Positions 40,605 to 58,423 of a DNA stretch of 64,000 nt are shown in pieces. The position numbers were made by a program, and so were the translations under genes. The stretch is from Bacillota bacterium (GTDB lineage: Bacteria > Bacillota > Sulfobacillia > Sulfobacillales > JAIMBI01), in contig JAJZYZ010000001.1 of assembly GCA_021797815.1 (NCBI GenBank), positions 35,973 through 99,972 of the forward strand, in the 5' to 3' direction. Under the pieces are notes generated by a model. It did not search any database and had not been told where the DNA came from. It saw only the letters and a program-made list of their open reading frames with translations. Each line of letters starts with the position of its first letter. Positions within the stretch are counted from its first letter, which is position 1.

Positions 40605-41189
40605 TCACGGACGAGGGGGCGTTTTCCGGAAGCTCACTCCGTGAACGCCGACGCCGTAGTGATAGACCATGCTGCCTCCGAGCGTTCCGGTCACCGAGAT
40701 CATGACCACAGCCGCCACCAGCAGCACCAGTGACAGTCCTGTGGGGCGCCCACGACCGGATCCCCAGGCCGACCATGCACCGGACGGGCGGTTCGACGAC
40801 CAGCGGCTGTTGCCTCCGTAGCGTCCGACGAGGCGAGCGCCAATCGCCGCCAGCAAGAAGACGCCCGTGAGGATGGCATCGCGTTGATGGGCCGACAGCA
40901 GGGCGAATGTGGCTGGCGTCCAGCGGACATATTGCTCGGAAATCACGCCCGCGGCTGCCGCGGCCACACCCGCCAGAAAGCTCAGGATGAGGAGCCAGAA
41001 GCTCACACGGTCGTAAAATCTGTCGCGCGGCTGGGTGATGCGGCCCAAAAGCTCGATAAACAGGCACGCATAGAGGAGCGCAATGGGGAAATGCACCAGC
41101 ATGGGATGAATCGTCGGCGGCAGGAACCCTTCGCCAATCCGAATCCACGTGGTGAGAAACCAGCTCCAGATTCCTAAAATCGCTCCCAT
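40605..41189 (-). CDS. DUF2231 domain membrane protein
   Basis: IHPMLVHFPIAL, four TM helices, TGTLGGSMVYHYGVGV. Confidence 0.85.
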   Translation of the reverse strand: MGAILGIWSWFLTTWIRIGEGFLPPTIHPMLVHFPIALLYACLFIELLGRITQPRDRFYDRVSFWLLILSFLAGVAAAAAGVISEQYVRWTPATFALLSAHQRDAILTGVFLLAAIGARLVGRYGGNSRWSSNRPSGAWSAWGSGRGRPTGLSLVLLVAAVVMISVTGTLGGSMVYHYGVGVHGVSFRKTPPRP

Positions 41190-41678
41190 GCGTCTTTCGG
41201 TCCCCCTCAAGGTCTCCGGCCGGCCGGCACCCTGCCCTATGATCCCGTCGACATGCGCCCAAGCTGGTGGCCGGGCCCGGCACCGGCGCGGTCACCCCAT
41301 CCACATGGGTTTCGGACGAAGAACGTCCAGTTACGAAACAGCCTACACGGACTATGAACCCCGAGGCTACCCCGGGGGTTACCAAACAGCAAGTTAAGTC
41401 CATCCAGACGTCGGACTCCGTGGCCGGCGCAGGAAGCCAAGACCCCCGGTCCGCTCACGCCCTGAAGACGGCCGCGGTCTAGACGGCAGGCGGACCCGCC
41501 AGGAGTGGGCAGCCTGCCCACCTCGGGGGGTGACGGGAGGCACGCTGCCACGCGGCTTCAAGGGGATAGGAGCGCATGACAAAATCGCGGATCTGCCCCT
41601 CATGTCCTTGAGAGGAGTTACCCGGAAGCCTGCACGGGTGACGTCTGGACGTGCAATCGGGGAGAGAGGCTCGCGGGA

Positions 41679-42314
41679 TCAGAGCAGGCCGTGGCGGTGG
41701 GCAATCATGACGGCCTCCACCCGATTTTTGGCGCGGAGCCGGTGAGCGATGTCATTCACGCGGGCCTTCACTGTATTCTCGGAGAGAAAGAGGCGGCGGC
41801 CAATCTCCCGGTTGGTGAGCCCTTCCGCCACCAGCCGCAGCATGTCCAGGTCGTGTGCATTCAGCGGCAGCGCCGGCTCGGTGGAACCCGTCTGGATCCA
41901 GTGCATGACGACGTCGGTGGCGCGGGCGTCAAGCACCGACCCACCGTCCACGATCTTCCGGAGGCTTTGCAGGAGATCGAATCCTTCCACCTCCTTCAAA
42001 ATGTAGCCGCGGACGCCCAGCCGAATGCACGTTTCAATCAGCGCCTCGTCCAGGTAGCTGGTCAGGATCACAAGGGCCGTCCGGAGTCCTTCGTCCCGGA
42101 CCGCCTGACACAGCGTCGCACCGTCCCGCCCGCCCATGCGAAGATCGACGAGAGCGAGATCAGGATCCAGGTCCCGGATGACCTGAAGCCCTTCTACGCC
42201 GTCCCGCGCCTCGCCGACCACGCGAAACTCGTCGGTCTCCTCCAAAATGGAGCGGATGCCGCGCCGCACCACCTCATGGTCGTCGACCAGGACGACGCGG
42301 ATGGCCTCACTCAT
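41679..42314 (-). CDS. NarL/DevR(DosR)-family response regulator
   Basis: VLVDDHEVVRRG, ALVDLRM, ILTSY, GYILK; LuxR HTH AEGLTNREIGRRLFLSENTVK. Confidence 0.93.
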   Translation of the reverse strand: MSEAIRVVLVDDHEVVRRGIRSILEETDEFRVVGEARDGVEGLQVIRDLDPDLALVDLRMGGRDGATLCQAVRDEGLRTALVILTSYLDEALIETCIRLGVRGYILKEVEGFDLLQSLRKIVDGGSVLDARATDVVMHWIQTGSTEPALPLNAHDLDMLRLVAEGLTNREIGRRLFLSENTVKARVNDIAHRLRAKNRVEAVMIAHRHGLL

Positions 42315-43482
42315 GGGGCGCCTTTCGCGGCAGCTGGACCCGAACCGTCGTGCCCCCCTCATCGTTGCGGAACACCGAGAAGTCGCCCCCGAACTCCTCC
42401 ACCAGACTGCGCATGGCGTGAAGCCCGTAGTGGGCGGTGAGTCCCGTCGGCCCGGCCAGGGCGTCGTCGTCGATCCCCTGCCCGGCGTCCTGAATGCTGA
42501 CAACCAGTGTTTCGCCATCGAATCCGGCGGCCACAAATGCGACGGAGCTCTGGCTGTGGCGGCGCACGTTGGTGAGCGACTCCGAAATAATCTTCCCGGC
42601 GCACGCGGCCAGTGCTCGGGGAACCATGTCGAGGGATCCACGGGTGACAAGCGTCGTACGGATGCCGCTTTCCTGCTCGAAATGCTGGACCAGGTCCTCG
42701 AAGACGAGCGACGCCGGCCGCCCCAGATCGGTGTCCTGTGCCAGCGAGAAGATGGCGGCCCGGATTTCGCTGGCTCCCTCCGCCGCCAGCTGCTTGGCGC
42801 GGATGAGTCGCTCGATGGCGGCGTGCTGGTTTGCCCGAAGACCCTTCAGCGCCTGATCCACTTCAATCCCGAGGGCGAAGAGGATCTGGGACACCGAGTC
42901 GTGGAGCTGCTGGCTGATGCGGGTTCTCTCTTTCAGCACGGCCAGTTCCTCGGACTTCGAGTACAGGCGGGCATTGTCAATCGCAATCGCCGCCTGGGTC
43001 GAGAATGCGAGCAGAAGTTCCTCGTCTTCGGTGGTGAAGAGGGCACCCCCGGGTTCGTGGGCCAGAAACAGCGACCCCAGGATCCGGTCCCGCATCGCCA
43101 GCGGTACGGCCAGAAACGCTCCCACCGGTGGATGCCCGGCCGGGGTGCCCACAGACAGCGGGTGCTCCGGCAGCGTGGCTACGCGCAGGGGAGAGCCCGT
43201 CTTATGCGGGAGGGCAAAGATCCCGCGCCCCTCCGGAAAGCCGGCCGGACCGGGCCATCCGGAGACGGTGAAGTACTCATAGCGGCCCGGAGCCTCGGGG
43301 TCTAAGACCAACAGACCCCCCATTTCGGCCCCGATAAGTTCGCGCGCTGCGTCCACCACTGTTTGCAGCAGGGGCTCAAGCGCCATGTGGGACGTGATGC
43401 GGGTGCTGACCTCAATCAGGGCATTCAGTTCCTGGACCTTGCGCCGAAGCATCCGTGTCGGTTCCGGACCGGGTGAGACCAT
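42307..43482 (-). CDS. GAF-domain sensor histidine kinase (DevS/DosS-like, HisKA_3)
   Basis: GAF with HPLSVGTPAGHPPVGAFLAVPL; H-box ERTRISQQLHDSVSQ; ESLTNVRRHS, DAGQG, GLHAM, GTTV; ATG 43482 after GGAGG. Confidence 0.92.
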   Translation of the reverse strand: MVSPGPEPTRMLRRKVQELNALIEVSTRITSHMALEPLLQTVVDAARELIGAEMGGLLVLDPEAPGRYEYFTVSGWPGPAGFPEGRGIFALPHKTGSPLRVATLPEHPLSVGTPAGHPPVGAFLAVPLAMRDRILGSLFLAHEPGGALFTTEDEELLLAFSTQAAIAIDNARLYSKSEELAVLKERTRISQQLHDSVSQILFALGIEVDQALKGLRANQHAAIERLIRAKQLAAEGASEIRAAIFSLAQDTDLGRPASLVFEDLVQHFEQESGIRTTLVTRGSLDMVPRALAACAGKIISESLTNVRRHSQSSVAFVAAGFDGETLVVSIQDAGQGIDDDALAGPTGLTAHYGLHAMRSLVEEFGGDFSVFRNDEGGTTVRVQLPRKAPHE

Positions 43483-43560
43483 GGCGTCACCTCCGTGTGG
43501 CACTGTCGGCGGAATACAGTCAACTCGAAGCGTCTCCGATGAAGTGGCCCAATTGTACCT

Positions 43561-43573
43561 CCGATTGGATCGG
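43561..43573. promoter_or_regulatory. Palindrome CCGAT-N3-ATCGG, candidate response-regulator site
   Basis: Perfect inverted repeat in the TCS/coxM divergent intergenic region, with related copies at 43536, 43584 and 43652. Confidence 0.35.
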
Positions 43574-43768
43574 TGGGAAGGATCCGAAAGGATCTGGTGG
43601 TCGAGGCCGGAGCGGGCGAGACTGAAAGCATTGATCGGTCATCGACCCACCCCGATTCCGTCGCCGATCTCTCAGCCATCCGTTGTGGTCGCCCTGTTAA
43701 GGTTTTCTGCCCGCTGGCCGCGTCGGGCCTTCGGGTCACCGGAAAAGAGAAAGGAGCACCGAGGGCCT

Positions 43769-44656
43769 ATGTTCCCGAACGCCTTCGAATATCAATCTCC
43801 GACGTCTCTCGACGAAGCCGTGGCGCTTCTCGTTGAACATGGCTACGAGGCCAAGATCCTGGCCGGGGGCCAGAGCCTCCTGCCGATGATGAAGCTTAGG
43901 GTGGCGGCGCCGACGGTCCTGGTGGATCTCGGGCGCGTGCCGGGCCTTGACGCCCGAACCGAGAACGACCGAGAACTCTCCCTCGGAGCCATGACACGCC
44001 ATGCGAGTCTCGAGTGGGATGAAGATCTTTGGGCGCGCTATCCCCTTCTCCGCGAAACGGCCGCCTGGATTGCCGATCCCCTGGTCCGGAATCGGGGCAC
44101 CATGGCCGGCTCTCTCGCCCACGCGGACCCCGCGGCCGACTGGGGAGCCGCGCTTCTCGCCCTGCACGGCTCGGTGACCGTGGACGGGCCGAACGGTTCC
44201 CGTCGCGTTGGAGCCGACGACTTCTTCGTGGACGTCTTCACCACCCGGCTGGAGCCAGACGAGGTGCTGACGGCGGTTCACATCCCCCGCCCCGAGCATG
44301 ACGTTTTTGCCACCCATCTCAAGCTTGAACGGAAGGTGGGCGACTTTGCCGTGGTGGCGGTGTCGCTGCAGGTGGAGATAGACGGTGACGGCCGCATCCG
44401 CCGCCCCGGCATCGGTCTCGCCGGGGTCGGCCCCACGTCGCTGCATGCTACGGCCGCCGCTTCACTCCTCGAAGGACAGCCCCTGTCGTTGGAGCTCATC
44501 CGTGAGGCCGCCGCCAAAGCTTCCGCGGCCACCGATCCGGCTTCTGACCGCCGCGGCAGCGCCGACTTCAAGCGTGACATGGTGCGGCTCTTCGTGGAAC
44601 GCGGACTCCGCTCGATAGAGAGCCGTTTCGATGAGGGGCGGCGTCGGAGCGCATAG
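43769..44656 (+). CDS. coxM: Aerobic CO dehydrogenase medium (FAD) subunit
   Basis: [51 protein letters not shown]; first gene of coxMSL. Confidence 0.92.
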
Positions 44657-44691
44657 ACCTCTACCCACTTGAAAGGATGGGAGGAAGTCCC

Positions 44692-45186
44692 ATGTTGATT
44701 TCCGTAACCGTGAACGGACAGGAACGAACGGCAGACGTCGAACCCCGTACGCTCCTTTGCTACCTGGTGCGGGACGAGCTGTCCCTCACCGGCACGCATG
44801 TTGGCTGCGACACCACAAGCTGCGGCGCCTGCACCGTCTTGCTGGACGGCGTGCCGGTCAAGTCCTGCACGGTGCTGGCCGTCCAGGTCGACGGACAGGA
44901 GCTCATGACCGTGGAGGGTCTCGAGCAGGCCGGCGATCTCCATCCTCTCCAGAAGGGGTTCTGGGAGAGCCACGGCTTGCAGTGCGGATTCTGCACCCCC
45001 GGCATGCTCATGACCACCTACGCGCTTTTGGAGCGCAACCCCGACCCGACCGAGGACGAGATCCGCCGGGCCATTTCCGGCAATCTCTGCCGATGCACCG
45101 GCTACCAAAACATCGTGAAAGCGGTCCAGTATGCGGCCCCGCTCGTGCGTGAAAAGCGCGAGGCAGCCAGGGAGGTGGCAAGGTAA
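44692..45186 (+). CDS. coxS: Aerobic CO dehydrogenase small (2Fe-2S) subunit
   Basis: [12 protein letters not shown]...KSC and QCGFCTPG...NLCRCTGY. Confidence 0.95.
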
Positions 45187-45187
45187 T

Positions 45188-47539
45188 ATGGCTCTCGAAA
45201 CAACGGAGCTCCGTCCGCTCGGAAAGTCTATCAAGCGCAAGGAAGACGCCCGCCTGGTCCGCGGGCAGGGCCGCTTTCTGGACGACATCAAGCTCCCTCG
45301 CATGCTTTACCTGGCCCTCGTCCGCAGCCCGTACGCCCACGCCCGCATCGTCGGTATCGACACCGCACGGGCCCGTGCCCTTCCGGGCGTACACCTGGTT
45401 CTGACGGGGGAAGACCTCGCGAAGCTTAACCTGGCGTGGATGCCGACTCTGGCCGGCGACAAGCAGATGGTGCTGGCCACCGACAAGGTCCTCTTCCAGT
45501 ACCAGGAGGTGGCGGCCGTCATCGCCGACACCCGAGCCCTGGCCGAGGATGGGGCGGCGCTCGTGGAGGTAACATACGATCCCCTGCCCGTGGTAGTAGA
45601 CCCCCGGCGGGCGCTTGAGCCGGACGCGCCGGTCCTCCGTGACGACCGGGAGCAGCGGGACAATCACATATTCCACTGGGAGGTGGGGGAGCGCGCCGCC
45701 ACGGACGAGGCGCTGCGAGCCTCGGCGGTGGTTGTGAAAGAGAGCATCCGCATGCCGCGGGTGCATCCGGCGCCGGTCGAACCGTGCGGATGCATCGCGG
45801 ATTATGACGGCGCTATGGGCAAACTCACCTGGTACGTCACGTCGCAGGCACCCCACGCCCATCGAACCGTCCTGGCCATGGTGGCCGGCCTGCCCGAGCA
45901 CAAGATCCACGTCATTTCCCCCGACGTCGGCGGCGGCTTCGGCAACAAGGTGCCCGTCTTCCCCGGGTACGTGGCGGCCATCGTCGGTTCCATCTCTCTC
46001 GGACGGCCGGTGAAGTGGGTCGAGACACGCACGGAAAACCTGACCAGCACCAACTTCGCCCGCGATTACTTCATGGACGTCGAGCTTGGGGCGGACGACA
46101 AGGGACGCGTCACGGCTCTCAAGGTGACGACCGTCGCCGACCACGGCGCCTTTGACGCCGCGGCCGACCCGACGAAGTACCCGGCGGGCCTCTTCAGCAT
46201 TGTTACGGGCTCCTATGACTTCCCCACCGCCTTCGCCGAGGTTGACGCCGCTTACACCAACAAGGCCCCCGGGGGCATCGCCTATCGCTGCTCGTTTCGC
46301 GTCACCGAAGCCTCGTTCCTCATCGAGCGGGCGATGAACTCCCTGGCCCTTAAGCTTGGCGTCGACCCGGCGGATCTCCGCTTCCAAAACTTCATAGGGA
46401 GCGACCGGTTTCCTTACGACTCGCCGCTTGGATGGACATACGACAGCGGAAATTACGCGGCCACGCTTAATCGGGCGCTTGACATGATTGACTACCGGGC
46501 GCTGCGCCAGGAACAGGCCGAGCGGCGGGCGCGGGGAGAATTCATGGGCATCGGCATCTCCACCTTCACGGAGATTGTCGGAGCCGGCCCGAGCCAGTCG
46601 TTCGACATTCTCGGCATCAAGATGTTCGACAGCTGCGAGATTCGCGTACATCCGACCGGCAAGGTCATCGCCCGTCTCGGCACCCGCCATCAGGGTCAGG
46701 GACATGAGACCACGTTTGCCCAGATCATCGCGGAGGAGCTCGGCCTCAGCACCGAGGACGTGCTGGTGGAGGAAGGCGACACCGACACCGCCCCGTATGG
46801 TCTCGGCACATACGCCAGCCGCAGCACCCCGACTGCCGGGGGCGCCGCGGCTCTGGCTGCGCGGCGGGTGCGCGACAAGGGCCGGAAAATCGCCGCGCAT
46901 CTCCTGGAAGTGTCGGACGACGAGGTGGAATGGGACGGCCAGCGATTCTATGCCGCCGGGGCCCCGGAGCACGCCGTGAGCATGGCCGAGGTTTCCCTGG
47001 CGGCCTACACCAACCTGCCCGCCGGCATGGAACCGGGCCTCGAGGCGACCTTCTACTACGACCCGCCCAATCTCACGTTTCCGAACGGCGCCTATGTGGC
47101 GGTAGTCGACATCGACAAGGGCACCGGCGAGGCCAAGGTGAGGCGGTTTGTGGCCGTTGACGACTGCGGCACGGTTATCAATCCGATGGTGGTGGAGGGA
47201 CAGATCCACGGCGGGCTCACGGAAGGGTTCGCCATTGCCTTCATGCAGGAGATTGCGTTTGACGAGGACGGCAACTGCCTCGCCCCCAACTTCACGGAGT
47301 ATCTCGTGCCGACAGCGGTCGAGGCACCGAAGTGGGAGACGGACCGCACCGTGACCCCGTCGCCGCACCATCCTATCGGCGCCAAGGGGGTGGGGGAGTC
47401 GCCCAACGTGGGCTCACCGGCCGCGTTTGCGAACGCGGTCATGGATGCGCTCTCGCCGCTTGGGGTCACCAACCTCGACATCCCGCTGTTTCCCTGGAAG
47501 ATCTGGGAGGTTCTGAGACAGCATGGCGTGACCGAGTAA
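45188..47539 (+). CDS. coxL: Aerobic CO dehydrogenase large (Mo-Cu) subunit, form I
   Basis: Form I active-site signature AYRCSFR (PGGIAYRCSFRVTEA); VGGGFGNK, QGQGHET, GTYASRS, KGVGES; gene order M-S-L. Confidence 0.96.
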   Translation: MALETTELRPLGKSIKRKEDARLVRGQGRFLDDIKLPRMLYLALVRSPYAHARIVGIDTARARALPGVHLVLTGEDLAKLNLAWMPTLAGDKQMVLATDKVLFQYQEVAAVIADTRALAEDGAALVEVTYDPLPVVVDPRRALEPDAPVLRDDREQRDNHIFHWEVGERAATDEALRASAVVVKESIRMPRVHPAPVEPCGCIADYDGAMGKLTWYVTSQAPHAHRTVLAMVAGLPEHKIHVISPDVGGGFGNKVPVFPGYVAAIVGSISLGRPVKWVETRTENLTSTNFARDYFMDVELGADDKGRVTALKVTTVADHGAFDAAADPTKYPAGLFSIVTGSYDFPTAFAEVDAAYTNKAPGGIAYRCSFRVTEASFLIERAMNSLALKLGVDPADLRFQNFIGSDRFPYDSPLGWTYDSGNYAATLNRALDMIDYRALRQEQAERRARGEFMGIGISTFTEIVGAGPSQSFDILGIKMFDSCEIRVHPTGKVIARLGTRHQGQGHETTFAQIIAEELGLSTEDVLVEEGDTDTAPYGLGTYASRSTPTAGGAAALAARRVRDKGRKIAAHLLEVSDDEVEWDGQRFYAAGAPEHAVSMAEVSLAAYTNLPAGMEPGLEATFYYDPPNLTFPNGAYVAVVDIDKGTGEAKVRRFVAVDDCGTVINPMVVEGQIHGGLTEGFAIAFMQEIAFDEDGNCLAPNFTEYLVPTAVEAPKWETDRTVTPSPHHPIGAKGVGESPNVGSPAAFANAVMDALSPLGVTNLDIPLFPWKIWEVLRQHGVTE

Positions 47540-47590: not shown

Positions 47591-48550
47591 ATGAGACAGA
47601 CGATCTGGTCCACGATGGCGGCGCTTGAGGAACAGCGGACCCCGTACGTGCTGGTGACGGTGGTGCGGAGCGTCCGCCCGTCCTCCGCCCGGCCGGGGAT
47701 GCGGGCGGTCGTAACCGCCGACGGGCGCATCGATGGCTTCATCGGCGGACAATGCACCCGGCATCTGGTGCTGGAGATGGCCCGCGAAGTGCTGGCGCGG
47801 CGCGATGCCTGCCTGCTGCGGGTCACGACCGACCCGGTCCCCAGCTCAGATCCCGGCGTGGTGACACGGCTTATGACCTGCCAGAGCGGCGGGGAGGTGG
47901 AGCTCCTGCTGGAACCCCATCTGCCGCCGCCGGTCCTGGTCATCATCGGCGGCACGCCCATCGCGGACGCGGTCAGAAGTCTCGCCGAGGATCTTGACTA
48001 CACCGTCCACCAGCACGCGTGGGAGCCGCCGGAGACACTCGAGGCCCTGTTCGCCCGCGCCCTGTCGGTTGAGGGGGAACGTCCGGCCTATCTCATCGCG
48101 AGCCAGGGTGAGTATGACGAAGATGCGCTCCTGGCTGTGGCCGCGCACCACCCATCCTATGTGGGGGTGGTGGCAAGCCCCCGGCGGGCGGAGCGGCTGC
48201 GCGAGGTGTTGATAGAAGCGGGGGCATCGCCCGAGTTCGTCGAGGCGGTATCGGCCCCGGCCGGTCTTGATCTGGGTGCGGTGAGCCCGGCCGAGGTGGC
48301 GCTCAGCATCCTGGCGGAACTGCTGGTGGTCCGTCGCAGGACGCCTGTCGAAGCCGCACGGCCGGTGGCGCGGGAGGAGGATGTCCGGCCGTCCGCGGTT
48401 CTGGATCCGGTCTGCGGGATGACCGTGGACCTGAACGCCACACCCCATACGGCCGTCCACCAGGGAACGACGTACGGGTTCTGCGGTCGGGGCTGCCTGC
48501 AGGCCTTCTTGCAGGATCCCGCCTCCTACGCGGCCCAAAGCGCCCACTAG
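47591..48550 (+). CDS. XdhC/CoxF family maturation protein fused to a C-terminal YHS (TRASH) domain
   Basis: GFIGGQC, MTCQSGG, SYVGVVAS, APAGLDLGAVSPAEVALSILAE; C-terminal DPVCGM...YGFCGRGC. Confidence 0.88.
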   Translation: MRQTIWSTMAALEEQRTPYVLVTVVRSVRPSSARPGMRAVVTADGRIDGFIGGQCTRHLVLEMAREVLARRDACLLRVTTDPVPSSDPGVVTRLMTCQSGGEVELLLEPHLPPPVLVIIGGTPIADAVRSLAEDLDYTVHQHAWEPPETLEALFARALSVEGERPAYLIASQGEYDEDALLAVAAHHPSYVGVVASPRRAERLREVLIEAGASPEFVEAVSAPAGLDLGAVSPAEVALSILAELLVVRRRTPVEAARPVAREEDVRPSAVLDPVCGMTVDLNATPHTAVHQGTTYGFCGRGCLQAFLQDPASYAAQSAH

Positions 48551-48660: not shown

Positions 48661-49137
48661 GTGCACACGTATACCGGAACTCTCGCATTAGAGGCTCCCC
48701 TGGAGCGGGTCTACCGCTTCATCACGGCCGCCGCCGACGTCGGGCCCTGCATGCCCGACGTCGCCTCGGTGGACGTGAAAGACGACACGCACTTCCAGGC
48801 CCGCGTCCGGGTGGGCGTGGGACCGGTCCGCGGTTCTTTTGACCTGAGTGCGGCCATCGTGCCTGACGGGGAGGGGAAATCGGCGGCCCTGGAAGTCCGG
48901 GGTGGCGGCATGGGGAGTGGGGTGGACATTGCGAGCGAGCTTCAGCTGGCGGAAGTCGCGCCGGGCTCCACGGAACTCCGGTGGGAAGCGCGCGTCACCA
49001 TCAGTGGACCGCTCGCGGCGTTGGGTGCGCGGCTCATCGACGGGCAGGCCAAACGCATTACGGCGCAGCTGTTCGACAACATAGAGGCCCGGATCCGACA
49101 GCTGTCAGAGGGAGGACCCCGGGAAGTTGAGGGATAG
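48661..49137 (+). CDS. coxG: CoxG (SRPBCC) CO dehydrogenase accessory protein
   Basis: VGPCMP, VRVGVGPVRGSF, GPLAALGARLI pattern; inside the cox cluster. Confidence 0.88.
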   Translation: MHTYTGTLALEAPLERVYRFITAAADVGPCMPDVASVDVKDDTHFQARVRVGVGPVRGSFDLSAAIVPDGEGKSAALEVRGGGMGSGVDIASELQLAEVAPGSTELRWEARVTISGPLAALGARLIDGQAKRITAQLFDNIEARIRQLSEGGPREVEG

Positions 49138-49144
49138 CCGGGAA

Positions 49145-49999
49145 ATGGCGGCCGACCGCGTGGACGCCCTGCTCGACCGCCTTCGGCAGGCGAGCTACAT
49201 CGCGTCGCGAGAGGCGGTAAGCGCCCTCTATCTCGCGGAGACCCTCGGCCGCCCGCTCCTGGTTGAGGGACCGGCCGGCGTGGGCAAGACCGATCTGGCC
49301 CGCGCATGGGCAGCACTCAGCGGACGGGATCTTGTGCGTCTGCAGTGTTACGAAGGCATCGATGCCAGTCAGGCGGTCTATGACTGGAATTATCCAAAAC
49401 AGCTGCTGTCGGCGCGCCTGGCCGCCGAGGGGACCGATATCGGCGCCCTGTACGGGCCGGGGTTTCTGGTTGAGCGCCCCCTCTTGCAGGCCGTCTCGGC
49501 GAGCCCTGCCCCGGTATTGCTGGTGGACGAAGTCGATCGGGGCGATGAGGCGATGGAGGCGCTGCTGCTGGAGTTTTTGGGCGAGTCGCAGATTACGATT
49601 CCCGAGCTGGGCACGGTGCGGGCCGGGGAACCGCTGCGGGTCATCCTCACCTCGAACCGGGTGCGGGAGCTGTCAGATGCGCTGCGCCGGCGGTGTCTGT
49701 ACCTCTGGCTCGACTTCCCGGATGCCGAGCGCGAAGTTGAAATTATCCGTGTCCGGGCGCCGGAGGTTCCGGGTGTCCTGGCCCGGGCGGTGGCAGACGC
49801 GACCCATGCGCTTCGACGCCTCGATTTGATAAAGCCCCCGGGCCTGTCCGAGGCCGTCGACTGGGCCCGCGCCCTCAACGCGCTCGGCTTCCACGAGTTG
49901 AGCCGGGACGCCGTCGAGGCGACCGCCAGTGCCGTGGTGAAGACAGCCGAGGACCGGGCCGCCGTGGAACGGCACTTAGGAAGTCATGGACGGCTCTGA
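49145..49999 (+). CDS. coxD: MoxR-family AAA+ ATPase CoxD
   Basis: LVEGPAGVGKT, RLQCYEG, YDWNYPKQLL, LLVDEVDR, LTSNRVRELSDALRRRC. Confidence 0.9.
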   Translation: MAADRVDALLDRLRQASYIASREAVSALYLAETLGRPLLVEGPAGVGKTDLARAWAALSGRDLVRLQCYEGIDASQAVYDWNYPKQLLSARLAAEGTDIGALYGPGFLVERPLLQAVSASPAPVLLVDEVDRGDEAMEALLLEFLGESQITIPELGTVRAGEPLRVILTSNRVRELSDALRRRCLYLWLDFPDAEREVEIIRVRAPEVPGVLARAVADATHALRRLDLIKPPGLSEAVDWARALNALGFHELSRDAVEATASAVVKTAEDRAAVERHLGSHGRL

Positions 50000-51104
50000 T
50001 CCGGCGGCCGCCCTCGCGAGCTTTTCCCACTATCTCCGCCGCCAGGGATTCAGTACCGGCCCGGACGACACCCGGCTCGCTCTTCTGGCGCTCGGGCATT
50101 CCCATCTTCTTGACGGCGGTGAGGTTCAAGACCTGCTGCGGACCGTCTATGCGCGATCGCCGTCCGAGTGGAGCCGCTTTCCCGATCTCTGGACCGCGTA
50201 TCTCACGGGACGCCGCCCGCGGGCTGTTCCCCCGCCTCCCCGGACGCTCCCCGAGGGGTCGGGTTCGAAGAGCCGCGAGGAGGCCGGACCGTCCCTCACC
50301 CGGCCGGCCGTCACGGGCAGGCGCCTGGCCTACAGCCCCACCTGGGGGGAGCGCTTTGACGTGCGTCTGGCGACGGGCTCAGAGCTTCTCGGCGTGCGCC
50401 AGGCGGCCATCGGCACCCTGGCCGCCCTTCACCAACACCCGGGAACGCGGCGGGGTGCGCCTGGCCATCCTCTTTTGGATATGCGTCGAACGATGGCGGC
50501 CGCCCTGCGCCTCGGCGGAGAGCCCGCCGTCTGGCACGAACGGCGCCGGCGGCCTCAGCCGCCCGCCATGGTGCTGGTGGTGGACTGTTCGGGATCCATG
50601 CGCGAGCATGCGTCCTACCTGCTCACCTGGGCATGGGCGCTGTCCCGGCTGCCGATCCGGCTCGAGGTGTTCGTGTTTTCCACCGAAGTCATTCGGCTCA
50701 CCCCGCGCCTCCGCCGTCTGTCGCCCGGCCAGGACCCGCTGGTCGGGCTTGACGCGCTGTCGGGCGGGACCAAGATCGGGGCGGCGCTCGAGCATATCCT
50801 GACCGCCTATCGGGAGCGGCTCGGTCCACGGACAACGCTGGCGGTCGCCTCAGACGGGTTCGACTCCGGGGACCAGGCGCTTCTTTCGGTCAGCACGCGG
50901 GCGCTTGCGGCCCGCGTCCACTGCCTTACCTGGCTCAATCCGGCCGCATCTCAGAAGGGATACCGCCCGCAGTCTGCGGGGATCCGGACCGTTCTGCCCC
51001 TCGTGGACCAGCATCTGCCGGTCCACGACCGGGCGAGCATGCTGGCCGCTCTGCAGCAAGGGGCATTTCGGAGAACGTTCAAAAGAAGCGCCGCGGACGG
51101 ATGA
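49986..51104 (+). CDS. coxE: vWA-domain protein CoxE
   Basis: MIDAS DCSGSM, VFVFST, SGGTKIG, SDGFDSGD, WLNP. Confidence 0.88.
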   Translation: MDGSDPAAALASFSHYLRRQGFSTGPDDTRLALLALGHSHLLDGGEVQDLLRTVYARSPSEWSRFPDLWTAYLTGRRPRAVPPPPRTLPEGSGSKSREEAGPSLTRPAVTGRRLAYSPTWGERFDVRLATGSELLGVRQAAIGTLAALHQHPGTRRGAPGHPLLDMRRTMAAALRLGGEPAVWHERRRRPQPPAMVLVVDCSGSMREHASYLLTWAWALSRLPIRLEVFVFSTEVIRLTPRLRRLSPGQDPLVGLDALSGGTKIGAALEHILTAYRERLGPRTTLAVASDGFDSGDQALLSVSTRALAARVHCLTWLNPAASQKGYRPQSAGIRTVLPLVDQHLPVHDRASMLAALQQGAFRRTFKRSAADG

Positions 51105-51346: not shown

Positions 51347-52471
51347 ATGACCGAACCACTCTTGCGAACCCACTGGACCGACCCCGTCACCGGCGTTCAC
51401 GGGTGGCTCGTGCTTGACCGGGTGCAAAATGGACTGGCCGGCGGCGGCATTCGCATGCGACCCGGTCTCACCCCGGCCGAGGTGGAGAGTCTGGCGCGGG
51501 TGATGACCCGTAAGCTTCGCATTCTTAACTTTGACGCGGGCGGGGCAAAGGCCGGCATTGCCTGCGACCCGGCACGTTCGGACGCGCTTCAGATTCTGGA
51601 GCGCTTCTTGACCGTTCATCGCCCGTTCCTCGCCGAGACATGGGCCACGAGCGAAGATCTGGGCACCCATGAACGCGACATCCTGGCCATCACCGAGCGT
51701 CTCGGGCTCCACACATCGGTGCACGCCGGCCTGATGCACCAGCCCGACCCGGCGGCGGCCGGGGAGCGGCTGGCCCGCATCCTTCAGCTCACGACCTCCG
51801 GAATGTCCATCACCGACGCCGTCACCGGCTATGGGGTGGCGGCGGCGACCGCCCGCTGCCTGAACGCGTTCGGCTGGGAGTCATCGTCCGTGCGCGTGGC
51901 GGTGCAGGGCTTCGGCACCGTCGGCGGGGGCAGCGCCTGGTACCTCGAACAGCTCGGCCTCAGAATCGTGGCGGTGGCGGATCGCGCGGGACTCATCGTC
52001 AAGCACGATGGCCTCGACGTGGCTACCCTCCTGGCCGCCCGCAACCAGTTCGGCGTCGTCGACCGGACGGCGCTTCCCGCGGACTACGAGACGCAACGCG
52101 GTGACGAGTGGCTGGAGGTTCCGGCCGACGTCCTCATCCCGGCCGCCGTGGCCGGCGCCATCCATGCGGGCAACGCGGACCGTGTGCGTGCGCGTCTTGT
52201 GGTTGAGGGGGCGAACCTGCCGGTCACGGCGGAGGCCGACGCCATCCTCCATCAGCGCGGCGTTGTGGTGGTGCCGGACTTCGTCGCCAATGCCGGCGGA
52301 GCCGGTGTTTTTGTGGCCGCCCTCTCGAACGACGTGGGGTCGACGGCGGAGGGCGTGCTGGATTACGTGGGCCACACCATCGGGGAGTGGACAGACCGCA
52401 TCTTGGCCGTCGCGCGGGAGCGGAAGTCAACCCTCCGGGCGGCGGCGGTGGAGCTCACCGATATCGGGTGA
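51347..52471 (+). CDS. Glu/Leu/Phe/Val amino-acid dehydrogenase family protein
   Basis: GGGIRM, MTRK, GGAKAG, EDLG, VTGYGV, QGFGTVG, VEGAN, PDFVANAG. Confidence 0.88.
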   Translation: MTEPLLRTHWTDPVTGVHGWLVLDRVQNGLAGGGIRMRPGLTPAEVESLARVMTRKLRILNFDAGGAKAGIACDPARSDALQILERFLTVHRPFLAETWATSEDLGTHERDILAITERLGLHTSVHAGLMHQPDPAAAGERLARILQLTTSGMSITDAVTGYGVAAATARCLNAFGWESSSVRVAVQGFGTVGGGSAWYLEQLGLRIVAVADRAGLIVKHDGLDVATLLAARNQFGVVDRTALPADYETQRGDEWLEVPADVLIPAAVAGAIHAGNADRVRARLVVEGANLPVTAEADAILHQRGVVVVPDFVANAGGAGVFVAALSNDVGSTAEGVLDYVGHTIGEWTDRILAVARERKSTLRAAAVELTDIG

Positions 52472-52477
52472 AGGGCC

Positions 52478-53623
52478 TCACCCGACGCCATCGGACGGCG
52501 AGGCGCCTCTCCGAACATTTTCGCGCGCTCGCAGGCGCATGCCGCGCCTTGTCAACCAGACATTGCGCACGGCCATTATACTTACGGCCGCCCAGGCTAG
52601 AAGGGCGATCCACACGAATGCGGCCCCGATCGGATGGAGCCCGGAAAATCCCGGCACCCGGGAGAGCGTGGTGGTGGCGGTGGCGTACATGCCGAGCGGG
52701 AACACGATGCTCCATTGGGCGGGATGGTAGCCAATCGGCTCGTGCTCATGCCCGTACTTCCACCAGCCCAGCACCAACAGAAGGGGAATCCACCAGGAAC
52801 CCCAGGCCCACAAGACCACGGTCAGGCCTTCCAAGAACGGACGCACCGTCACGAGGGCGGCGCCGGCGTGATGCAGCAATAGGAGCCGGGAGCTTGCCAG
52901 CACGGTGATGGCGGTCGCCCCCATGTTGATCCAGTAGGGCGGGTCAAGGTCCGCCGCGCGGACCCGGTAAAAAAACAGGCGGTCCATCACGAGGCCGATA
53001 AAGACCACGTACAGCATGATGCCCATGGCCCAAAAGACCAAGGCCGCGAGAAAGAGCGCTTTCCCTGCGTGCGGCAGGTGATCGACCATGGCGCCGAGCC
53101 AGGTGGAGAGAGACTCTTCGGCCACGATGGCGATGAGCCAGCCGCCGTTGACCATCGTGAGGCGAACACGCCGCCCCACGATGAGAAGAGTGGTCAGGCT
53201 GTAGAACAGCACGATCCACAGGAGGCATCCGGTTACCCCCAGCGCGAGGCCCAGAAACGGCCGGTGCGCGAACAGAAACCGCACCGCCAGGACGTTGGAC
53301 GCGGCCACCATCGTGAAGTAACCGAACATGCGAGCGGGATTCGTGACATCCTGACGGGTCTCTTCGGTGAAGCGTGCCCCGCGCAGGACATAAGTCACCC
53401 AGAGGAAGCCATATGCCGCGGCGCCGATCCACATAAGCCCCATGGAGATGGCCGTCTGATGATAGAGATGAAGCGCGGTCGACACGATCTCGGTGGCCAT
53501 GACGAGGGCAAAGTAGCCGGGGTACAGACCCTTCAGGGTGGAATGCGCGCCGGTGGTGCTGGAGGCGCCCTCCGTTCCGCCGGCTTTTAGTGTTGTCGGT
53601 GTTCGTGATGGGAAAGCTTCCAT
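52478..53623 (-). CDS. TDT (tellurite-resistance/dicarboxylate; SLAC1/TehA-like) family anion channel
   Basis: PGYFALVMAT, NGGWLIAIVA, PPYWINMGATAIT, WSIVFPLGMY; about 10 TM helices. Confidence 0.9.
   Translation of the reverse strand: MEAFPSRTPTTLKAGGTEGASSTTGAHSTLKGLYPGYFALVMATEIVSTALHLYHQTAISMGLMWIGAAAYGFLWVTYVLRGARFTEETRQDVTNPARMFGYFTMVAASNVLAVRFLFAHRPFLGLALGVTGCLLWIVLFYSLTTLLIVGRRVRLTMVNGGWLIAIVAEESLSTWLGAMVDHLPHAGKALFLAALVFWAMGIMLYVVFIGLVMDRLFFYRVRAADLDPPYWINMGATAITVLASSRLLLLHHAGAALVTVRPFLEGLTVVLWAWGSWWIPLLLVLGWWKYGHEHEPIGYHPAQWSIVFPLGMYATATTTLSRVPGFSGLHPIGAAFVWIALLAWAAVSIMAVRNVWLTRRGMRLRARENVRRGASPSDGVG

Positions 53624-54727: not shown

Positions 54728-54737
<10 letters not shown>
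54471..54737 (+). CDS. Small hypothetical protein (DUF4351-like helical fold)
   Basis: ATG after GGAGG; ILQWRFGPVSDELAAKVRKLTDVSQIDHLI; stop overlaps the narG start region. Confidence 0.7.

Positions 54738-58412
<3,675 letters not shown>

Positions 58413-58423
<11 letters not shown>

Follow-up and report, generated by a model that had tools for sequence, protein, structure and literature searches.

A DevS-like single-GAF sensor kinase and its regulator beside CO dehydrogenase genes: a candidate heme-based CO-sensing system

Among described bacterial sensors, the heme-binding histidine kinases DevS (DosS) and DosT of Mycobacterium, which act with the regulator DevR (DosR), come closest to the system reported here. 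In the available part of PMC4082495, the heme of these kinases has a proximal His ligand (H149 in DevS, H147 in DosT) and a distal Tyr (Y171 in DevS, Y169 in DosT). As to carbon monoxide (CO), the available text of PMC13077300 (2026) names only CooA, RcoM and CorQR as regulators; it reports no known CO regulator beside the loci of Ni-containing CO dehydrogenase (Ni-CODH/ECH) in 80 of 179 genomes, and calls for "novel regulatory mechanisms". Near Ni-CODHs, the available part of PMC6344411 mentions only a COG0642/COG0745 pair, which belongs to a different family. Our full-text literature searches returned no description of a GAF/DevS-like two-component system (TCS) beside CODH genes (paper supplements may list neighbouring genes). 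We analyse here a 64,000-nucleotide stretch of a Bacillota genome, called the window as a whole, in which a DevS-like kinase and a DevR-like regulator are encoded divergently from a form I, Mo-Cu CODH. The evidence leads us to lean, if only slightly, towards reading this pair as a heme-based sensor reserved for genes of CO oxidation and responding to CO itself. The pair is probably a cytoplasmic TCS of the DevS/DosT-DevR family, which would control the adjacent CODH genes and its own operon as well.

The genes concerned are the following, with their coordinates in the window.

42307..43482, minus strand: sensor histidine kinase of 391 aa (open reading frame, ORF, and Pfam domains), with the phospho-accepting His of HisKA_3, H194, at codon 42901-42903
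42973..43380, minus strand: GAF domain of the kinase (residues 35-170), a homologue of the DevS/DosT heme GAF-A (phmmer, Foldseek)
41679..42314, minus strand: NarL/DevR-type response regulator of 211 aa, REC plus GerE/LuxR helix-turn-helix (ORF and Pfam)
43766..44656, plus strand: coxM, FAD-binding medium subunit of Mo-Cu CO dehydrogenase, beginning MFPNAFEY (ORF and Pfam)
44677..45186, plus strand: coxS, [2Fe-2S] small subunit (ORF and Pfam)
45188..47539, plus strand: coxL, form I large subunit (ORF open from 45131, AYRCSFR, TIGR02416)
47591-48550, plus strand: XdhC/CoxI-like gene with a C-terminal YHS domain (domain search)
48661-49137, plus strand: coxG (domain search)
49127-49999, plus strand: AAA ATPase, coxD-like (domain search)
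49986-51104, plus strand: coxE, VWA domain (domain search)

The kinase consists of an N-terminal helix, a single GAF domain (Pfam, residues 35-169) and a HisKA_3 (185-249) plus HATPase_c (297-387) core. This core and its NarL/DevR-type partner are those of the DevS/DosT class, of which the tandem GAF-A and GAF-B arrangement is absent here. The length of 391 aa is counted from an ATG (a GTG 21 nt further upstream also lies in the open frame), and a Pfam scan of the kinase found no membrane domain. The regulator ATG overlaps the kinase stop by 8 nt and, on this arrangement, the two genes are translationally coupled. Across a 283-bp spacer, the coxM-S-L order and the accompanying maturation genes (CoxI-like, coxG, coxD-like and coxE) are those of a form I CODH. 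The window CoxL scores 1214 bits on TIGR02416 ("aerobic CO dehydrogenase large subunit", cut-off 991) and contains AYRCSFR, which we take to be the form I CoxL signature. No coxF was identified in the window's cox cluster, and the YHS domain of the XdhC/CoxI-like protein, of a kind that binds metals, may have a part in supplying copper to the Mo-Cu site. A sequence-only reading that preceded this analysis had described a single-GAF kinase and a NarL-type regulator, divergent across 286 bp from a form I CODH operon; ORFs, Pfam domains and the CoxL score bear this out, apart from the spacer length, where the difference is immaterial. In NCBIfam, no kinase model scores the window kinase above its cut-off (the best, MadS, gives 99 bits against 500), and its homologues carry the mere database label of "GAF domain-containing sensor histidine kinase".

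When the kinase was compared with all PDB sequences (phmmer), the best match was the GAF-A domain of DosT (2vzw, E 1.2e-21), with DevS (2y79, 2w3d and others) matched at E ~1e-19. In the AlphaFold2 model of the kinase (pLDDT 87.5, built on 52 homologues), the GAF domain superposes on DosS/DosT GAF-A (Foldseek TM 0.84-0.89, root-mean-square deviation ~2 Å, identity 33-36%), and the kinase core matches DesK. As both the top PDB matches and the fold point to DevS/DosT GAF-A, the likeness goes beyond chance. The HMMER alignment of the query GHPPVGAFLAVPLAMRDRILGSLFLAHE with DevS puts H117 (codon 43132-43134), in an HPP motif, on the proximal His and F139 (codon 43066-43068) on the distal Tyr. The earlier reading had quoted the peptide GHPPVGAFLAVPLAMRDRILGSLF, which is found in the kinase GAF, had aligned it by eye with the His kept and a Phe 22 residues further on, and had named the roles of H149 and Tyr171 in DevS. 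A formal alignment to DosT and DevS gives the same assignments and shows the homology to be real, and the named roles agree with the available part of PMC4082495.

The rest of the predicted pocket is partly kept and partly changed. In the available part of PMC4082495, the DosT residues within 4 Å of the heme include S111, L112, E114, G115, R116, G117 and V118 (P113 is unlisted). The DosT contact loop L112-P-E-G-R-G-V118 aligns with F82-P-E-G-R-G-I88 of the window kinase, and the listed contacts correspond to G81, F82 and E84-I88 (hand count on the HMMER alignment), so that E114-G-R-G is kept and S111, L112 and V118 are replaced by G, F and I, respectively. In DevS, E87 and H89 are the partners of Y171 in a hydrogen-bond network; the aligned residues here are L58 and L60. 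The framework of the pocket is thus conserved, the alignment to heme GAF-A being free of gaps in this region, and all polar distal residues are replaced.

The same Phe occurs in a whole group of related kinases. Among the 100 best kinase homologues, which we aligned, the first 28 (P0001-P0028; 35-100% identity, mostly ~390 aa with a single GAF) all have His plus Phe, P0029 has Asp plus Phe, its proximal His being replaced, and the following 62 (P0030-P0091) all have Tyr at the distal position. In an alignment of 27 Phe-type with 25 Tyr-type sequences, the distal residue is Phe in 27/27 of the former versus Tyr in 25/25 of the latter; besides F139/Y, the types are split at L38/V, G56/A, K72/I, V73/T, T95/E and V120/M, the last of which corresponds to HPPV in Phe-type versus HPPM in Tyr-type kinases. 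The proximal His (27/27 aligned sequences), the HPP motif and P83, G85 and G87 of the contact loop are invariant in the Phe-type. A tree of 36 kinases (leaving aside L019, a duplicate of L018, five loci that lack the His/Phe pattern and the weak second match of L038) places the Phe-type on one side of a branch with 100/100 support. Across these alignments, Phe is a clade-wide character and not a private change of the window kinase. A protein-cluster search, dominated by giant multi-GAF proteins, yielded ~10 clusters at 50% identity with His plus Phe among the nearest single-GAF matches, and a metagenome scan for the Alicyclobacillus/Hydrogenibacillus-type Phe subgroup (P0015, P0020-P0027) found no relative. 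In P0028 (661 aa) and P0029, four N-terminal MHYT repeats are fused before the Phe-type GAF. The window's genome also encodes a His plus Tyr single-GAF kinase (G000:C5, that is, L053:7523-9585) with its own regulator upstream; a glucodextranase-like gene and one for an enoyl-CoA hydratase stand next to it, and no CoxL-family gene is nearby.

The genomic neighbourhoods of Phe-type kinases are dominated by CODH genes. A scan of genome contigs for relatives of the kinase gave 13 loci. All 12 loci with at least 40% identity (from metagenome-assembled genomes, or MAGs, of Bacillota and, in two cases, of Sulfobacillus benefaciens, with one more labelled Actinomycetes) have coxM-S-L divergent from the kinase-regulator pair, like the window, and the 13th (34% identity, Tyr-type) is without cox genes. 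We then considered a sample of 201 genomes, evenly drawn from the window's class, which already included nine of the 12 loci (coordinates compared by hand); in the three extra loci, L014, L018 and L019, the pair is divergent from coxMSL. In this sample, 20 genomes have a kinase match of at least 41% identity (E <=5e-78), the next match being at 35% (E 4e-50), and the CoxL search gave 24 matches of at least 68% identity (23 full-length and one partial), the next being at 48% or less. Eighteen of the 20 kinases lie within ~6.5 kb of a form I coxL on the same contig, 13 of them divergent from it and five in the same orientation, 3' of the cox genes. As for the other two, G475 has its kinase and cox parts on two contigs, with the break inside coxI, and G414 has no form I coxL; its kinase-regulator pair (L023:7359-12081) is directly upstream of the Ni-CODH gene cooS, whose product scores 621 bits on TIGR01702 (cut-off 478) and has 6elq as its best PDB match (E 8e-200). 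Hcp was ruled out as the identity of this neighbour, which scores as a cooS equivalog and far under the Hcp cut-offs. None of the 79 remaining kinase matches in the class sample (36% identity or less) is near a CoxL-family match on the same contig (hand comparison), and the distal residue is Tyr in the three of them in which it was read. One further genome of the sample has a partial coxL only. In a related family, two complete genomes (L031 in G058 and L032 in G100) carry form I coxMSL-G-I and no kinase-regulator pair; L032 has an IS110-type transposase 2 kb upstream of coxM.

Ni-CODH genes are also found next to Phe-type pairs in Anaerolineae, where 301 genomes centred on that of L022 were searched with a Phe-type sequence (P0018). 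We read 20 of the 26 matches (the other six were at 37% identity or below), and 13 of the 20 loci have Phe at position 139. The pair is followed by cooF-cooS in nine of these 13 and a divergent copy stands beside a sugar kinase in one; the other three are discussed below. The two CooS tested score 708 and 752 bits on TIGR01702, and the seven read loci without the His/Phe pattern have no CODH. A second metagenome scan, based on a generic GAF pattern, returned 80 mostly Tyr-type loci and was taken as a control, not as a survey: CoxL or CooS was found in none of its 50 His plus Tyr loci (15 of which are at least 10 kb long), while its single His plus Phe locus, L054, continues with cooS. Besides L023 of G414, Phe-type pairs directly upstream of cooF-cooS are those of L033, L035-L039, L041, L042, L045 and L054. 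Some cooF-cooS loci continue with a Pyr_redox_2 (FNOR-like) gene or with NuoE/NuoF-like genes.

In total, 37 Phe-type loci have a readable context: 22 are linked to Mo-CODH, in three gene orders, 11 to Ni-CODH (in Anaerolineae and one Bacillota-type genome), three to FdhF-like/hydrogenase genes and one to other genes. A CO dehydrogenase of one or the other of these unrelated kinds is thus present in 33 of the 37. The sequence-only reading had proposed a heme-based TCS dedicated to sensing CO (or CO/O2) for aerobic CODH, and had tied this proposal, which our results support in part, to the co-occurrence of Phe with form I coxMSL, as opposed to Phe being equally common in homologues unlinked to cox. 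Phe does co-occur with form I (22 of 37 loci, Tyr-type kinases being unlinked) and is far from equally distributed (33/37 CODH-linked Phe-type loci against 0/50 for the Tyr-type). Its restriction to aerobic CODH was too narrow, the Phe-type being found beside anaerobic Ni-CODH too.

Linkage to form I cox extends to a sister clade of kinases with another distal residue. On metagenome contig L083 (1172-6801), the kinase reads GHPPV...IGMIGVANK, with the His kept and Gly at position 139, and is followed on the same strand by a regulator and form I coxMSL (VAYRCSFR). This kinase has at least 761 homologues at E <=1e-40, many of them from soil metagenomes and some labelled as Chloroflexi or Dormibacteraeota MAGs. 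A sample of 401 genomes from the phylum of L022's genome contains nine carriers, and in seven of these Chloroflexota genomes (L134, L136-L141) the pair is 1.2-4.5 kb upstream of form I coxMSL; the one linked CoxL tested scores 1174 bits on TIGR02416. As to the other two, one locus ends 0.6 kb past the regulator and the other is a partial match without cox. Gly-type kinases keep the His and HPPV and have mostly lost the P-E-G-R-G loop (IPVRPSV). A quick unrooted tree of 49 rows, a subset of the available sequences (20 Phe, 9 Gly and a small sample of 20 Tyr), separates Tyr from Phe plus Gly with an SH-aLRT of 100, with values of 97 for Phe and 100 for Gly. The cox link first proposed for the Phe-type kinase holds, and is wider than proposed.

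The spacer between kinase and coxM contains a candidate binding site for the regulator.

43581..43594, no strand assigned: exact 14-bp palindrome GATCC-N4-GGATC, GATCCGAAAGGATC, candidate regulator site (spacer conservation)
43558..43571, minus strand: degenerate second copy of the palindrome, GATCCAATCGGAGG, with two mismatches, 23 bp from the first and between the predicted -35 and -10
43552..43579, minus strand: predicted sigma-70-like promoter towards the kinase, -35 TTCCCA, 16 nt, -10 TACAAT

Exact GATCC-N4-GGATC is present in the orthologous spacers of six of the seven close-clade sequences (the window and L010-L014) and nowhere else within those 11-21 kb loci, most of which have a degenerate second copy 22-23 bp away. 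At the same place, Sulfobacillus-type loci have ATACC-N6-GGTAT (exact in four of five distinct loci, with one mismatch in the fifth), so that the candidate operator site co-varies with the regulator clade. The palindrome has two exact sites in the window and eight in the genome; as the pattern by itself is not rare, its weight comes from its conservation. The predicted promoter (-35 at 43579-43574, -10 at 43557-43552) is the only sigma-70-like match in the spacer and reads towards the kinase; no promoter-like match towards coxM was found. Its -35 abuts the palindrome, as expected if the regulator were an activator of its own operon. DevR, for comparison, uses tandem sites, the proximal one overlapping the -35.

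From the position of this site, and from repeats upstream of coxM or cooF in other layouts, we infer that cox may be controlled from the palindrome. The repeats, noted by eye, with weak statistics and not counted here as evidence, are short tandem inverted repeats with a CC...GG core just upstream of coxM in L025, L026, L027, L028 and L030, and similar ones just upstream of cooF in L036-L038 and L042. Examples from these non-divergent layouts, upstream of the first CODH gene, are GACCGTTTGGTG with GACCAAACGGTC, or CCATCCAGATGG next to TTGACA. The cox promoters did not stand out in a general search for tandem inverted repeats of the CC...GG kind. For the clade whose pair follows the cox genes, ACC-N4-GGT is ~tenfold enriched upstream of coxM (7 in ~1 kb vs 0.71 per kb); we do not count this as evidence, because the five loci include two near-copies and the choice of motif came after looking.

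If the pair is a CO sensor, the single GAF would bind a b-type heme through His117, as homology suggests, in a distal pocket predicted from the alignment to be wholly apolar (Phe139, Leu58, Leu60) and to lack a hydrogen-bond donor for bound O2. Binding of a diatomic gas, most likely CO, to the ferrous heme would switch the HisKA_3 kinase/phosphatase, and the phosphorylated NarL-type regulator may then bind the conserved 14-bp palindrome in the spacer, altering transcription of coxMSL-IGDE and of the kinase-regulator operon. Phosphotransfer is textbook for such kinase-regulator pairs; the sign of the response (on or off) is not readable from sequence. That the same Phe-type sensor adjoins unrelated Mo-Cu and Ni CODHs strengthens CO as the common denominator: the property shared by the Mo-Cu enzymes of aerobes and the Ni enzymes of anaerobes is their substrate, and this is the strongest argument for CO.

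Several observations weigh against CO sensing, most heavily the behaviour of DevS Y171F and the move of one derived subclade to an FdhF-like/hydrogenase cluster. In the available part of PMC4082495, all liganded states of the DevS Y171F variant, CO included, are kinase-inactive; discrimination is lost, the kinase being off with CO, NO and O2 alike, and O2 is bound more tightly. Hence, Phe alone need not give a CO-selective sensor. Where a heme sensor has no distal hydrogen-bond donor, as in the H-NOX domains of aerobes, O2 tends to be excluded and NO or CO bound, but the Y171F data warn against transferring this analogy directly. The linked genomes are often kin and the tree needs only ~2-4 changes of context, so that the linkage counts overstate independent events. 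In the related family f3, four genomes carry form I coxL and lack the pair (19-kb stretches read around cox in two of them contain no kinase-regulator pair), which shows that the pair is not obligatory for form I cox. In three of the 13 Anaerolineae Phe-type loci (L040:1633-12298, L043:9407-20000 and L044:1-10668), the pair precedes genes for an FdhF-like Mo enzyme (TIGR01591 score of 646 bits, slightly short of the cut-off of 666), Mrp/Nuo-like subunits and a hydrogenase large subunit, that is, a formate-hydrogenlyase-like cluster with a group-4-like hydrogenase. The proximal His is replaced by Tyr in L044, and by D, Y, R or C in a few relatives. Lastly, with up to one mismatch the palindrome occurs seven times in the window versus 4.8 times expected from shuffles, which is not an enrichment; by this figure and by its number of exact sites, it does not serve as a regulon marker. 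The FdhF-like-linked copies, for their part, form one subclade, sister to cooS-linked copies with 100/100 support and nested in the Ni-CODH-linked clade, and the genomes that carry them have a cooS-linked copy besides; for these two reasons, they look like a later duplication.

These points feed other explanations of the pair. It could be a heme O2 or redox sensor like DevS/DosT, tuning Mo-CODH, Ni-CODH and formate hydrogenlyase-like complexes to oxygen, CO not being the physiological signal. We regard this as unlikely, though as deserving serious attention: the FdhF-like/hydrogenase-linked paralogues have no obvious connection with CO, and DosR controls hydrogenases in Mycobacterium smegmatis under hypoxia. 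Moreover, according to the available part of PMC4082495, the characterized members of the DevS/DosT family sense O2 or redox state, and DevS Y171F still binds O2, more tightly. However, a single O2 logic would have to serve both the O2-requiring Mo-CODH and the O2-sensitive Ni-CODH, the loss of all distal hydrogen-bond donors is fixed across the Phe clade, and the window's genome keeps a Tyr-type paralogue (G000:C5) that would be the natural O2 sensor. The FdhF-like-linked copies count for less here, being a single derived subclade of the Ni-CODH-linked clade in genomes that retain a cooS-linked copy. A further reading is that of a nitric oxide (NO) sensor or of a gas sensor without discrimination, with one output for NO, CO and O2, which is exactly the behaviour of DevS Y171F in the available part of PMC4082495; the nearness to CODH genes would then have to do with detoxification or with the control of stress. 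Some Ni-CODH/FNOR clusters are associated with NsrR/IscR-like regulators in the available part of PMC6344411, and L037 has a cooF-cooS-Pyr_redox_2 layout of that type. Such a sensor would nevertheless be permanently O2-liganded in an aerobe and carry no information. Its neighbours, furthermore, are CO-oxidizing enzymes and not NO reductases or Hcp (the cooS equivalogs score well above their cut-off and far under that of Hcp), which makes this explanation quite improbable.

Improbable as well is a GAF that has lost heme binding and responds instead to some other small molecule or to a partner protein, with a different task for the conserved His. GAF domains do bind many ligands, some clade members are without the proximal His and the Gly-type sister clade is without most of the P-E-G-R-G loop (IPVRPSV); against this stand the invariance of His117, of the HPP motif and of the P-x-G-x-G loop in the Phe-type, and the 33-36% identity to heme GAF-A without insertion or deletion in the pocket region. 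Historical hitch-hiking, whereby the pair would regulate unrelated genes and merely travel with a cox island, draws on the close kinship of many linked genomes. It seems very improbable, given that the link is seen in three Mo-CODH gene orders, with non-homologous Ni-CODH genes and in a third layout in the Gly-type, and that the conserved operators vary together with the clade of the regulator.

How does the window pair compare with known systems? It shares with DevS/DosT-DevR the heme-type GAF-A fold, the HPP proximal His, the P-E-G-R-G loop and the HisKA_3 plus HATPase_c core, and its NarL-type regulator resembles DevR, which is among its top three PDB matches (3c3w, E 2.3e-31). Unlike DevS/DosT, the kinase has one GAF instead of GAF-A plus GAF-B, Phe for Tyr171, Leu/Leu for Glu87/His89 and HPPV for HPPM, belongs to a separate clade with the Gly-type, and has CO dehydrogenases rather than a dormancy regulon as typical neighbours. 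What would be new, then, within the already known DevS family of heme GAF kinases, are the pocket, the architecture and the target. By the available text of PMC13077300, the proposed system would be like CooA in switching on adjacent CO-oxidation genes upon a heme-based CO signal, like RcoM in being a CO regulator, and like CorQR of Thermococcus onnurineus in being a regulator pair that responds to CO and is encoded with a CODH cluster. It differs from all three in architecture, as Pfam gives only GAF, HisKA_3, HATPase_c, REC and GerE in the window pair: there is no CRP-type domain, unlike in CooA (one-component, CRP/FNR-type), and neither the heme-PAS nor the LytTR domain of RcoM (one-component). 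CorQR, set apart by its description, is archaeal and has no heme GAF and no GAF/HisKA_3-NarL phosphorelay. In CooA, CO displaces an endogenous ligand, and nothing of that kind is readable from the window sequence; RcoM, a single-purpose CO regulator as the window pair would be, likewise occurs beside both cox and coo genes. CoxC and CoxH of Oligotropha carboxidovorans are MHYT proteins and putative gas sensors in a form I cox cluster, MHYT being their putative gas-sensing domain. MHYT repeats are also carried by the Phe-type relatives P0028 and P0029, unlike the window kinase, which has neither MHYT nor a membrane domain.

A broader proposal, which we put forward tentatively as a possibility, is that the Tyr-less DevS-like kinases (Phe- and Gly-type) may together form a single ancient family that senses CO through heme. 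Such a family would be the first two-component class in bacteria and the fourth class of CO regulators beside CooA, RcoM and CorQR, switching on Mo-Cu and Ni CODHs across at least Bacillota-type thermophiles and acidophiles, Anaerolineae, and abundant soil Chloroflexota/Dormibacteria-like lineages. The last group includes atmospheric CO oxidizers. CO sensing by aerobic CO oxidizers is poorly known, and the Phe-type pair is a concrete, clonable candidate for it, which comes with a predicted operator and with links to two unrelated CO dehydrogenases. The kinases also offer a natural experiment: the position on which ligand discrimination depends in the best-studied heme GAF sensor holds Tyr, Phe or Gly. 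If CO sensing is correct, it would account for how trace-gas oxidation is regulated in widespread lineages of thermophiles and of soil bacteria, and would provide structural biology with a GAF heme pocket tuned to CO and biotechnology with a ready-made kinase-based CO biosensor.

Other genes surround the pair and the cox cluster. Directly 3' of the regulator, on the same strand, is a gene for a DUF2231 membrane protein (window 40605-41210). Elsewhere in the window's genome are two more CoxL-family paralogues (G000:C102:3199-5529 and G000:C134:5126-7408), with 41-43% identity to the form I CoxL. Past the cox cluster, the window encodes a Glu/Leu/Phe/Val dehydrogenase (51347-52471), a SLAC1/TehA-type anion channel (52478-53623) and a NarG-like respiratory nitrate reductase alpha subunit of 1231 aa (54728-58423).

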